Shown piece by piece: positions 1 through 3,000 of a stretch of DNA of 17,704 bases (within the stretch, counting starts at the first letter, position 1; every line of letters starts with the position of its first letter). The DNA is from a virus. Its lineage: Duplodnaviria > Heunggongvirae > Uroviricota > Caudoviricetes. The position numbers were made by a program. The stretch lies in the IMG/VR virus record IMGVR_UViG_2541047122_000031. The stretch is one strand, 5' to 3'.

Positions 1-3000
1 ATGGACAACGACAAAATTGATCAACACAGCGACGAAATTGAAGTTGAGAGCGAAGAAAAAGAGCGTGGCAAAAAAATAGAAATAGATGAAGATCGACTCC
101 CCTCCCGGGCGATGGCAATTCATGAGCATATCCGCCAGGATGGTGAAAAAGAGCTGGAACGCGACGCAATGGCACTACTGTGGTCAGCCATTGCGGCGGG
201 TCTGTCGATGGGCGCTTCATTACTGGCAAAAGGGATATTTCATGTCGAACTGGAAGGTGTGCCGGGCAGCTTCTTGCTGGAGAATCTCGGTTATACCTTT
301 GGTTTTATTATCGTCATTATGGCCCGCCAGCAATTATTTACCGAAAACACCGTGACTGCGGTACTACCCGTCATGCAAAAACCGACAATGAGCAACGTTG
401 GCTTACTTATGCGGTTATGGGGCGTCGTGCTGCTGGGTAATATTCTCGGGACAGGTATTGCGGCGTGGGCATTTGAATATATGCCAATCTTCAATGAAGA
501 AACTCGCGATGCATTTGTCAAAATCGGCATGGATGTGATGAAGAACACCCCCAGCGAGATGTTTGCCAACGCGATCATTTCCGGCTGGCTGATCGCCACT
601 ATGGTATGGATGTTTCCTGCAGCGGGTGCGGCAAAGATTGTGGTGATTATATTGATGACCTGGCTTATTGCCCTGGGTGACACCACTCACATCGTTGTCG
701 GTTCTGTTGAAATCCTCTATCTGGTGTTTAACGGTACGCTGCACTGGAGCGATTTCATCTGGCCCTTCGCACTACCTACTTTAGCGGGGAACATCTGCGG
801 CGGCACCTTTATCTTCGCGTTAATGAGTCATGCACAGATCCGTAACGACATGAGCAACAAGCGCAAAGCAGAAGCACGCCAAAAAGCAGAACGTGCGGAA
901 AACATTAAGAAAAATGATAAAAACCCGGCATAAATGGCGAGGGTTTAAGCAATCGAGCGGCAGCGTACTTACCCCGCAGTCCATTAGCGGGTATACTCAT
1001 GCCGCATTGTCCTCTTAGTTAAATGGATATAATGAATATAAGTATTAAGTCATTGATTTAAATACAGAGAGCGCCGAAATAATCGTCATATCAGTACCCA
1101 TTTATGTACACATCCCGTTAAGCATGCCCCGCACTTCCGTACGGGGGCGTGTTCTTTACTCCACTCCCACTTTTTTGTTGTACTCGCGGTTAAACCGATC
1201 CACGGCAATTTTCATATCCCGCTCAACCGATTTCACCATCGCCGACTGTTGCGCCAGACTGAGAGTACTGTCGGCGTAAATGGCATCACGCTGTTTACGC
1301 AAATCCTTCAGTCTCTTCCGGGTATCCTGCATAAGCCCGTTCATCGACAATTTTCCGTTGTTCTCGTCAATGAACGCCGTTCTTTCTGCACCGGTCAGAC
1401 TCTTCAGCTCTGCGTGATACTGCGCAACCTCTGTCATCCGGTCGTACATCTTCTGCTGGTCAGCATACGGCATCACCTCACCTGAAATTTTCCCCAGGAA
1501 GGGCACCTGCTGTTCCGGTATATCAATACCATTCAGCGATTTCACCGCCGCATCCGTGGTTTTGGAAATGAAGCGCCCTGTCCCTCCGGAGATATAGTCC
1601 ACCCAGTATTTCAGCGATTCCGGTGTGATATCCACCGCGCCGGGACGGTACTGGCTGCCACCAGAGAACGCATTCAGCCAGGATGCAAACGCCTTGTACG
1701 CTTCTGGCGTTGAACGTCTTCCCAGCTGGCTGTCAGGTTTTGGTGTACCAAACGGCATGTTCTCCTGGTAAATCTGCGCCCCCATGAAGTTTTCATTCAT
1801 GGCAAGGTTCGCAAACGGACGCAGAATGGTCGGCGCTGCATTTTTCAGCAATGCCCCGGACAGTGTTTCCGACGTCTCACTGCCAATCGGGCTGAATGCA
1901 CCAAGCACACCACCAACAACATTACCGGCAGCACGGGACGCCGTCAGGTCACCCGCCGCCACACCTTCAGCAGTATGCCCGAGCAGGAAGAAAACGTTGT
2001 ACCCGTAAGGCAGAGGAATACTCCAGTACTCTCCGGCCTTGCCCCCGAACACCGATTTCATAATGACGAGGTTACGCTCTTTCACATGAGACGGCACCTT
2101 GTCATACCAGTTAACCCCGTCATCATCCTCCCCCGCAACACTGCGGTTAAGCGAGCCAAGCAGATAACCCGCTCCCACAGCTGCAAGCGCGATTTTCTGC
2201 GGTACATTGAGATTCTTCCAGCGAAGGCGCTCCAGTAACGGCCCGTCGCCATTAAGATGTCCGAGCGTTCTCACCAGGTTTGCGGTCCCCTGAATGCTGG
2301 CGTTGGCGAACATGTACAGCGAGTTCATCAGCGCTCCCTGCTCACCACGACGGTTAAAGTTCACCGTCATGTTTTTGGCAAGAGACGCCGCCTGCTGGCG
2401 TGACAAACCGGCATCACGGGCGTGTTTATAAGCTGACAGACGCAGTGCGTTTTCAACCGCACCGTTGGCATCCTCGACCAGGTTCAGGAACGAATTCCAT
2501 GCACCGATACTCTGGCCTTTCCATCCTCCCTTCGCCAGCGATACAAGGCGATCCATTTCCTTCTGCTGGCCTTCAAGGTCACCCATGTTAAACCAGCCGG
2601 TTTTACCTCCGTCCTCAACAAACTCTTTCCACACCTTCTGCCACTGCGCACCTTTGCCCGTGAGGTTTTTGCCACGCAGACTGGCGTATACGGCTGACAT
2701 AGCAGAACGGCTGTCTTTCACCACAGCCAGTGCGGATAAGTTATCCAGCCCTTTCAGTTTGCCGTCGCTCCTTCCCTGCTCCGCCTTCAGATTCATCACC
2801 GCTGTCTGCACGTCACGGATGAAGTTACTGACCAGGAATTCCGGGTTATACGACGTGTTCACCGTTGCCAGGAAGCGGTTAACTTTCCCCAGCGTACGGA
2901 TTACTGCGTTACTGGTTTCCGGTCCCATATTCTTCATCGCACGCATCAGGCGCGGATCATGGAGTTTGATGTAGTACGTTTTGCCGTTCTTTTTGGTGGT

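Follow-up and report, generated by a model that had tools for sequence, protein, structure and literature searches.

The 5' stub of argW beside an Stx2a-type prophage is best read as the attachment core of an integrase that uses the 5' part of the tRNA gene

Introduction

Why should a prophage end lie against the first 24 nucleotides of a tRNA gene and no more of it? The question is raised by a 17,704-nt stretch of viral DNA (IMG/VR record IMGVR_UViG_2541047122_000031; hereafter the window), where the 5' end of argW gives way to prophage sequence. An initial annotation considered this junction atypical on the ground that tyrosine integrases directed at tRNA genes recombine in the 3' part and leave a 3' fragment at the far end, and it weighed an unusual but genuine 5'-side attachment core against a secondary deletion. 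Williams is said to have distinguished, in 2002, three sublocations within tRNA genes, namely the anticodon loop, the T-loop and the asymmetric 3' end.

argW is a standard insertion site of Stx2a phages, and PCR assays exist for both of its junctions (PMC3519850, PMC8309913, PMC4587872). The available passages of these papers on Shiga toxin-producing E. coli (STEC) describe the occupancy of argW, and neither the position within the tRNA gene nor the replacement of its promoter. Known argW Stx2a prophages come from E. coli O157:H7 (EC4115/TW14359, phage sequence types PST2/PST3), O121:H19, O111 and O145; together with Stx2-converting phage 86 (Traversvirus tv86) they stand nearest to the prophage of the window. 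The yfdC junction of the window recurs in 209 complete genomes; the window leaves the stx genes and the integrase outside.

Results

On the plus strand the window opens with the host gene yfdC (1-933), an ORF on the promoter side of argW that carries this name in RefSeq annotations of matching genomes, where its product is a formate/nitrite transporter family protein. Downstream lies a promoter-like element at 969-997, made up of TTACCC (969-974), a 17-nt spacer and TATACT (992-997), which in alignment is identical to the unoccupied K-12-like locus except for one spacer base. Our consensus promoter scan did not flag this element; its sequence and position suggest that it is the native promoter of host argW, left behind by integration and now directed at a 24-nt stub. 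The stub, argW nt 1-24 (GTCCTCTTAGTTAAATGGATATAA), occupies 1009-1032 on the plus strand and matches the unoccupied locus exactly. Divergence begins at 1033, where the window has T and argW has C25, and no tRNA relationship is seen beyond this point. The succession of TATACT, 24 nt of argW and an abrupt switch is therefore as the initial annotation described it, and the alignment to an unoccupied locus that it had called for places the departure to the base.

Together with the T at position -1, the stub makes up a 25-bp segment (TGTCCTCTTAGTTAAATGGATATAA; 1008-1032, plus strand), the att common core O. It comprises acceptor nt 1-7, nt 8-9, the D-stem (10-13), the D-loop (14-21) and nt 22-24, the latter being three of the four nucleotides of the D-stem 3' strand. 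The core is present in a single copy in the window, with 0 chance matches expected even when three mismatches are allowed. Directly adjoining it, as in the attP of free phages, is the P' arm (1033-1120, plus strand). Two GTAC-centred repeats in this arm, CAGTACCCA at 1092-1100 and ATGTACACA at 1104-1112 (plus strand), recur in Hafnia phage yong2 and Pantoea phage AH07, whose attP does not keep the remaining arm, and three further sites resembling them lie in the P arm beside int; these repeats would be arm-type sites bound by the integrase. A GC-rich hairpin (about 1121-1153) separates the arm from the last prophage gene, a minus-strand ORF (1156-9537) for a 2793-aa polyvalent protein with the Pfam domains LPD38, LPD5, LPD1 and MuF_C, named 'LPD38 domain-containing protein' in RefSeq. 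Its stop codon (1156) lies 123 nt from the stub, close to the 120 nt first estimated.

The tRNA search proposed for the window returned nothing: ARAGORN found zero tRNA genes over its whole length, and Rfam found no RNA family, whether 800-1400 was searched with a permissive E-value or all of the window with the gathering threshold. Weak Rfam matches to sR44, MIR1033, ClpQY_promoter and RRE were far under the thresholds and were dismissed. No IS element is present at the junction. Compared with complete genomes, the whole window has a best match of about 97%, and the P' arm with the end of the giant gene is 99.6% identical to deposited Stx2a-converting phages.

The opposite prophage end was followed in E. 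coli EC4115, where the order is yfdC, the 25-bp core, a 62,258-bp Stx2a prophage, a minus-strand gene for a tyrosine integrase, 195 bp, the core with a full tRNA-Arg gene, and intS. The two copies of the core (1266-1290 of segment L001 and 14524-14548 of segment L002) are 62,258 bp apart. A direct repeat of the 24-nt segment at the other end had been named beforehand as the mark of a genuine 5'-side core, and EC4115 has exactly this repeat, extended by one upstream base. Its int-side junction carries a complete 75-nt tRNA-Arg(CCU) gene identical to native argW, so that the tRNA is regenerated at the level of the gene sequence. Free phage genomes supply the remaining partner: in the attP of Stx2-converting phage 86 (a circular record) and of vB_EcoP_phi296, both virion-derived genomes, the int-side arm, the 25-bp core and the giant-gene-side arm are contiguous, and the same arm-core-arm order is found in yong2 and AH07. 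An alignment of BOB', BOP', POP' and POB' showed the core to be identical in attB of the unoccupied locus, the junction in the window, attP of phage 86 and phi296, and the int-side junction of EC4115. The att core is thus located in the 5' part of the tRNA gene, in the acceptor strand and D-arm. Here the block of identity runs from -1 to +24 and the displaced piece consists of the host promoter and argW nt 1-24, not the 3'-part block and displaced 3' fragment of the canonical sublocations. Natural variation narrows the crossover somewhat: E. coli attP equals attB throughout the core, while tRNA homology in the attP of the two phages from other genera starts at +1 and is lost at +24 (yong2) or +23 (AH07), confining the crossover to nt +1 to +22.

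The yfdC-side junction occurs in 209 of 5426 complete E. coli genomes, spanning several serotypes, and the int-side junction with full argW likewise in 209 of 5426; a match to argW is retained in all 5426. The suspected loss of tRNA-Arg(CCU) is contradicted by these counts and by the native-identical gene at the int-proximal end. For the strain of the window itself, whose other prophage end lies outside the window, we infer a rebuilt argW from the 209 other genomes with the same junction.

The integrase, which begins 195 bp from the core and outside the window, is a protein of 389 aa encoded beside attP. It contains Arm-DNA-bind_3 (E 3.6e-17) and Phage_integrase (E 2.5e-17), and this pairing of an N-terminal arm-binding domain with a catalytic domain identifies it as a P4-like heterobivalent tyrosine integrase. 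At 20 of 33 related genome loci, the integrase gene is divergent from a tRNA-Arg(CCT) gene detected by ARAGORN, whose 5' end is about 170-205 bp away; the integrases at the related loci are 57-91% identical and are not phylogenetically independent. About 20 further Enterobacterales species thus have relatives of the integrase arranged in this way, the genera including Erwinia, Enterobacter, Pantoea, Brenneria, Xenorhabdus, Providencia, Tatumella, Salmonella, Morganella, Proteus, Rouxiella and others. A sister clade with 56% integrase identity (Sf101, mEp234 and related prophages) has its integrase gene divergent from a rebuilt sbcB and about 183 bp from its 5' end, and host homology there starts about 15 nt past the ATG. 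Since this clade also replaces the 5' end of its target, 5'-end replacement is a trait of the lineage. The initial annotation relied on the rule of 3' regeneration by integrases directed at tRNA genes, which is true of most elements and does not extend to this lineage.

An element inserted upstream of its target separates the gene from the native promoter. The spacer between int and the rebuilt tRNA gene lies outside the window. TTGnnn, exactly 18 nt and TAnnnT were found in 21 of 21 such spacers (20 relatives and EC4115), the -10 hexamer ending 39 nt (38 in one spacer) before tRNA +1; in the argW phage the two hexamers read TTGATT and TATTAT. Across the 21 spacers, information content is near maximal at TTG and TA and low in the spacer between the hexamers and in the flanks. 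The E. coli int-argW spacer taken alone gave promoter matches at chance level (2 sites against 1.2 expected), and the promoter claim accordingly rests on cross-genus conservation; this putative element-borne promoter, of sigma-70 type, would be expected to fire. That TTG-18-TAnnnT is so strictly kept, and at a fixed distance, in about 20 Enterobacterales species points indirectly to selection for expression of tRNA-Arg(CCU).

The imperfect hairpin noted earlier at 1126-1146 is real, but its extent had been set too small: the stem spans about 1121-1153 and directly follows the giant gene's stop codon. In the window its dG is -17.1 kcal/mol and its z is -3.2; the corresponding hairpin of EC4115 has dG -21.1 kcal/mol and z -5.9, that of phage 86 dG -16.0 kcal/mol and z -4.7. 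The hairpin is missing from the attP of yong2 and AH07, and hence is part of the late region of Stx phages and not of the att module. On the plus strand a terminator scan accepts the hairpin with its T-rich tail (CGTGTTCTTT), though the T-run has breaks in it; the minus strand, which is the giant gene's sense strand, has no run of T after the stem. As the hairpin and its plus-strand tail lie between the stub and the giant-gene stop, a transcript from the stub may end before the gene. The hairpin could halt such a transcript, and the antisense reading into the giant gene that the initial annotation envisaged from the host promoter may well be stopped there first. Folding of the putative stub transcript (1003-1165) gave z -0.5 and no structure besides the terminal hairpin.

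Discussion

Taken together, the data point to a short-tailed Stx2a-type prophage (Traversvirus tv86 / argW-type) whose int-distal junction (BOP') has its crossover core at window 1008-1032, a reading to which we assign a probability of about 0.93. The four-way att relationship, the rebuilt tRNA gene, the type of integrase and the conservation of layout and promoter hexamers across genera are seen directly in the genomes compared. The proposed course of events is that phage attP, holding an exact copy of argW nt +1 to +24, recombines with chromosomal argW and the phage is thereby inserted within the 5' part of the tRNA gene. At the int-proximal end, the phage-borne 5' segment joins host nt 25-75, which restores the tRNA-Arg(CCU) gene in full; the gene now follows phage DNA with its own putative sigma-70-type promoter (TTGnnn-18-TAnnnT). 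At the int-distal end, which is the one in the window, the host promoter and nt 1-24 remain as a dead stub, followed by the P' arm, the hairpin and the 3' end of the last phage gene.

A different history would be that an IS element or illegitimate or homologous recombination, acting after conventional integration, deleted the rest of argW with adjacent prophage DNA and removed tRNA-Arg(CCU) from the locus. What speaks for it is the general rule of 3' regeneration and the lack of a tRNA gene in the window. The breakpoint, however, falls on exactly the base where identity between attP and attB ends, what follows the stub on its right is the P' arm that free phage genomes carry in attP, and no IS is found at the junction, which is composed exactly of the left host arm, the core and the P' arm. 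Moreover, the identical junction recurs in 209 genomes of several serotypes with an equal count of intact int-side argW junctions, and we regard the deletion history as next to impossible. Another suggestion accepts the junction as an integration product and sees in the host promoter, stub and P' arm a functional new transcript, a small RNA or antisense regulator of the giant gene, in place of an inert by-product. The intact promoter-like hexamers are compatible with it, as is the T-tailed hairpin about 115 nt past the stub, which could bound a discrete RNA of about 150 nt. Yet the stretch from stub to hairpin has no unusual structure (z -0.5), the stub-proximal P' arm differs among phages apart from the putative arm sites, Rfam gives no matches, and the hairpin stops short of the giant-gene stop codon, leaving little or no antisense overlap; such a function seems very unlikely.

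Within the integration model itself, the crossover might be placed more narrowly, with strand exchange specifically in the D-loop. The D-stem halves GTTA/TAAC would then form the dyad to which the integrase binds in core-type fashion, on the model of the anticodon-loop and T-loop sublocations. This placement agrees with the D-arm (nt 8-24) being the invariant 5' portion of the tRNA in 21 of 21 rebuilt genes and with identity in three attP stopping at nt 22-24, within the D-stem 3' strand; a Klebsiella study, in the part of its text available, describes a repeat of acceptor 5' half, D-stem and D-loop and terms it a D-loop sublocation (bioRxiv 10.1101/2020.11.02.365908). On the other hand, there is no phage/host polymorphism inside the core, and any 6-8-bp overlap in +1 to +22 fits. 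The D-stem is just 4 bp long, and its 3' strand is imperfect in attP (TAAT, TAGT or TGTA in place of TAAC). The rebuilt genes further match host-specific acceptor-stem variants (A7-T66, G7-C66, T3-A70), which would follow equally from adaptation of attP to its host and from an exchange closer to the 5' end. We hold exchange in the D-loop to be a tentative proposal, at somewhat less than even odds.

Integration at the 5' part of argW, whichever nucleotides are exchanged, has a close counterpart in Klebsiella pneumoniae. Islands and prophages with integrases of clade I.d sit there at the 5' end of the tRNA gene arg2A, in what the available passages of the study call the 'D-loop sublocation', and a second element is possible at the 3' end of one tRNA gene (bioRxiv 10.1101/2020.11.02.365908). 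As far as those passages go, the arg2A elements and the window prophage both integrate upstream of a tRNA-Arg gene, the core described here (acceptor nt 1-7 to nt 22-24) falls in the 5'-end/D-loop class, and intS-type elements 3' of argW parallel the Klebsiella two-element loci; the same passages make no mention of an element-borne promoter. The integrase of Klebsiella phage Kp4876-4 is 85.8% identical to the E. coli one, and on this basis our integrase likely belongs to the same clade I.d.

Classical tRNA integration, exemplified by IntS of KplE1/CPS-53 at the 3' side of argW, has in common with the present system a tyrosine integrase gene beside attP, a piece of the tRNA in attP, a rebuilt gene and a displaced fragment at the far end. 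It differs in that the attP fragment here is the tRNA's 5' and not its 3' end, that the element sits upstream of the gene it rebuilds and has to provide a promoter instead of a terminator, and that the displaced fragment is a 5' stub retaining the host promoter. The sbcB sister clade is alike in its divergent integrase gene, within about 200 bp of the rebuilt 5' end, and in new upstream sequence coming from the element. DusA-associated integrases (PMC4482086), likened here by their description in the available text, also rebuild the 5' end of their target; sbcB and dusA are protein-coding genes, in contrast to the tRNA gene targeted here.

The junction is thus ordinary and largely already known, and the view of Stx phage biology is unchanged; argW has served as an insertion site in strain typing for more than 10 years. 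The consequences lie in interpretation. A 5' tRNA stub beside a prophage end should not lead one to assume a deletion or damage to the tRNA gene, tools and rules of thumb built around a 3' fragment (Islander-type logic) will overlook or misplace the 5'-end class, and the wording 'argW interrupted' or 'not intact' in the STEC literature conceals a rebuilt gene. The principle of rebuilding the target gene is extended to an element obliged to bring a promoter. argW is used at both ends by two unrelated integrases, on the 5' side here and by IntS on the 3' side, which allows two elements in one locus.

A more far-reaching idea is that the int-attP module works as a cassette, giving its target a new promoter and 5' end, with the supply of AGG-decoding tRNA depending on prophage state if Int, Xis or host factors modulate the promoter. 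Integration would then move the tRNA-Arg(CCU) gene, or sbcB in the sister clade, off its native promoter onto an element-encoded one, which has the core on one side and the integrase's putative arm-type sites on the other and lies back-to-back with the control region of int. We consider this doubtful; if true, it could matter for AGG-rich phage genes and for lysogen physiology. AGG makes up 3-16 per 1000 codons in most ORFs of the window against 0 in yfdC, a difference that is suggestive at most.

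The argW stub belongs to a genuine 5'-side att core

Downstream of yfdC (ORF call, 1–933, plus strand), the window carries a −35-like TTACCC (969–974) and, 17 nt after it, a −10-like TATACT (992–997), followed by the 24-nt argW stub GTCCTCTTAGTTAAATGGATATAA (1009–1032). The resemblance to a tRNA stops at T1033, beyond which the sequence is unrelated to tRNA. On the minus strand, a giant ORF of 2793 aa ends at 1156 (1156–9537; ORF call and Pfam domains). Because its product contains LPD5 (aa 1051–1200), LPD1 (1361–1440), MuF_C (1750–1839) and LPD38 (2476–2681) domains, it is a phage 'polyvalent protein'; its N-terminal ~1000 residues match no Pfam family. 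The initial annotation had described this junction correctly in every detail, the hairpin next to the giant gene being even larger than described, and had explained the stub either by a genuine att core on the 5' side of the tRNA gene or by a secondary deletion that removed tRNA-Arg(CCU). The stub aligned without differences to nucleotides 1–24 of the tRNA-Arg gene downstream of yfdC at an unoccupied, K-12-like locus (L005), and neither a tRNA gene (ARAGORN) nor an Rfam family was found in the entire 17.7-kb window.

A 501-bp segment around the junction matched full-length in 209 of 5426 complete E. coli genomes (98.8–99.4% identity among the matches listed), including O157:H7 EC4115, TW14359 and O121:H19. 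In EC4115, yfdC is followed on its right by a Stx2a prophage, running from the giant gene through tail and head genes, lysis genes, stx2AB, three tRNA genes, Q, replication genes, the cI/cro region, recombination genes and an excisionase-like gene to a tyrosine integrase gene on the minus strand at the far end. A full-length tRNA-Arg gene lies on the plus strand 195 bp past the integrase start and is followed by intS. The direct repeat at the other prophage end, which the initial annotation had named as a possible refutation pointing to a genuine 5'-side core, is indeed there: a 25-bp core, TGTCCTCTTAGTTAAATGGATATAA, is present at both ends, 62,258 bp apart, the yfdC-side copy running into phage DNA and the int-side copy having phage DNA before it and the remainder of argW after it. 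The decisive control came from free phage: the circular record of Stx2-converting phage 86 and the genome of vB_EcoP_phi296 each have the core joined directly to the int-side arm on one flank and to the giant-gene-side arm on the other. Alignment of the four sequences gave the complete set of unoccupied attB (BOB'), yfdC-side junction (BOP'), free-phage attP (POP') and int-side junction (POB'), the window being BOP'. The int-side junction with a complete argW was likewise present in 209 of the 5426 genomes, the rebuilt gene is identical in alignment to the native one, and all 5426 genomes keep an argW match. Since the free phage has a contiguous attP and argW is intact at the int side, the stub did not arise by deletion and tRNA-Arg(CCU) is kept in the lysogen, which settles the question for the 5'-side core and against the deletion. 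The closest whole-window match among complete genomes was 97% identical; the far prophage end lies beyond the window, and we infer a full argW in the window's own strain from these other genomes.

Classical sublocations within tRNA genes are the anticodon loop, the T-loop and the 3' end. As these include no 5' site, the argW junction belongs to none of the classical classes, from which it differs in site and not in way of working. As a prophage junction it is ordinary and already known, its class being uncommon but described. Insertion of Stx2a phages at argW is standard STEC knowledge, with junction PCR used for typing, and its position inside the tRNA gene is not discussed in the articles concerned (PMC3519850, PMC8309913, PMC4587872, PMC7946995). 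For Klebsiella pneumoniae, a preprint (bioRxiv 10.1101/2020.11.02.365908) reports insertion into the 5' end of a tRNA-Arg gene and calls its position a novel D-loop sublocation, places the 5'-end integrases in a clade of their own and states that both ends of the gene can be occupied. The site so named is the equivalent of the argW site. One Klebsiella phage encodes an integrase that shares 85.8% identity with that of E. coli. The 3' side of argW is used by the unrelated integrase intS of a KplE1/Sp16-type element (14525–15918 in the EC4115 int-side locus L002; 1502–2895 in L005), so the EC4115 tRNA gene has prophage DNA on both sides.

Identity between E. coli attP and attB extends from −1 to +24, and tRNA homology in attP from +1 to +23 in the Hafnia phage and +1 to +22 in the Pantoea phage. 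Together with the invariance of the host-derived nucleotides 23–24 in all rebuilt genes, these limits place the overlap region within +1 to +22. The D-arm (nt 8–24) is what stays invariant in the tRNA 5' region. Acceptor-stem pairs specific to the host (A7–T66, G7–C66, T3–A70) were matched in the rebuilt genes, which could reflect either a host-adapted attP or a crossover nearer the 5' end.

Replacement of the target 5' end is a property of the integrase lineage

The prophage integrase, labelled 'bacteriophage P4 like' in the phage 86 record, has an Arm-DNA-bind_3 and a catalytic Phage_integrase domain. A search for its relatives in one genome per species yielded 33 loci, 20 of which encode an integrase 57–91% identical to the E. 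coli one (Erwinia, Enterobacter, Pantoea, Brenneria, Xenorhabdus, Providencia, Tatumella, Salmonella, Morganella, Rosenbergiella, Proteus, Limnobaculum, Rouxiella and others). All 20 have a tRNA-Arg(CCT) gene divergent from and upstream of the integrase gene, its 5' end ~170–205 bp from the integrase start. No tRNA lies nearby at most of the more distant relatives (~54–63% identity). A sister-clade relative in E. coli SCPM-O-B-8794 (L026, 1150–1520; 56% identity) lies ~183 bp from the start of sbcB, also divergent. The chromosome of unoccupied strains matches this locus only from ~15 nt past the sbcB ATG; therefore the sister clade replaces the sbcB promoter and first codons, the element supplying the sequence upstream and roughly five initial codons, so that MTDTDKQP... 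takes the place of the native N-terminus. The sbcB junction is carried by 582 of 5426 complete E. coli genomes, and the sister clade also occurs in phages Sf101 and mEp234 and in Stx2a_F349. Taken together, the tRNA-Arg(CCT) loci and the sbcB case indicate that 5'-end insertion with rebuilding from attP belongs to the integrase lineage and is not an accident of one prophage. The dusA integrases (PMC4482086) provide a precedent for a replaced 5' end of a protein-coding target, as found here at sbcB.

Because the element inserts in the 5' part of the tRNA gene, it splits the promoter from the gene. We aligned 21 int–tRNA spacers (EC4115 and the 20 related loci, from ~20 Enterobacterales species). 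Every one contains TTGnnn, exactly 18 nt and then TAnnnT, with 39 nt (38 nt in one) from the end of the −10 hexamer to tRNA +1. Information content is near-maximal at TTG and TA, and conservation is poor in the flanks and in the 18 nt between the hexamers. The E. coli phage hexamers are TTGATT and TATTAT (L002 14456–14485). Taken alone, the promoter match in the E. coli spacer is no better than chance; its conservation across genera makes it credible, and the element is probably the promoter of the rebuilt tRNA gene. A transcript from it would carry a leader of ~30 nt, presumably removed by RNase P. No description of this element was found in the papers cited here; it and the lineage-wide 5'-end replacement are tidy additions to a known class rather than surprises.

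Both attP arms carry copies of a (C/A)(T/A)GTACnCA repeat, five in all, whose conservation extends across phages of E. coli, Hafnia and Pantoea. Three, on (C/A)TGTACnCA, lie nearer the integrase start than the promoter (L002 14340–14385), and two in the P' arm, the giant-gene-side arm (window 1092–1100 and 1104–1112); Hafnia phage yong2 and Pantoea phage AH07 keep the latter two in their attP, but not the remainder of that arm. By number and placement, the repeats are probably arm-type integrase binding sites.

The hairpin and other features of the window

After the host promoter-like element come 24 nt of tRNA, ~90 nt of P' arm and the hairpin (stem ~1121–1153), which ends three bases from the stop codon of the giant gene. 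Folding gave −17 kcal/mol for the window hairpin and −21 kcal/mol for its EC4115 allele (z-scores −3 to −6). A T-rich tail, CGTGTTCTTT, is on the plus strand only, where a scan scored the hairpin as terminator-like. It is kept in phage 86 and EC4115 and missing from the Hafnia and Pantoea attP, and is therefore part of the Stx phage late region, not of the att module. It can reasonably be read as an insulator that shields the late operon from plus-strand transcripts crossing the att site, and also as the place where the late transcript has its 3' end. The putative stub transcript has no special structure (z −0.5), and a dedicated function for it is unlikely.

Compared with the EC4115 yfdC-side locus (L001 1399–1400), the window hairpin has an extra G at 1147 (five G against four C) and a C-to-G/T change, which weaken the stem from −21 to −17 kcal/mol. 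Several positions of the P' arm closest to the stub (~1066–1072) also differ from EC4115, which fits a distinct phage lineage. In the tail region, the ORF at 16179–17303 begins with GTG and encodes 374 aa, against 541 aa in the annotation of its EC4115 counterpart; several in-frame stops lie upstream of it, and homology to most O157 genomes stops at 17398, which suggests that the 5' part of this gene (window 16179–17704) is different or disrupted in the source strain. The tRNA genes upstream of stx2 in the EC4115 prophage (L001 38839–39088, outside the window) are Arg(TCT), Arg(TCG) and a CAT-anticodon tRNA (Ile in RefSeq), none of the three being the CCU isoacceptor. Most of the window's prophage ORFs use AGG at 3–16 per 1000 codons; yfdC has none.
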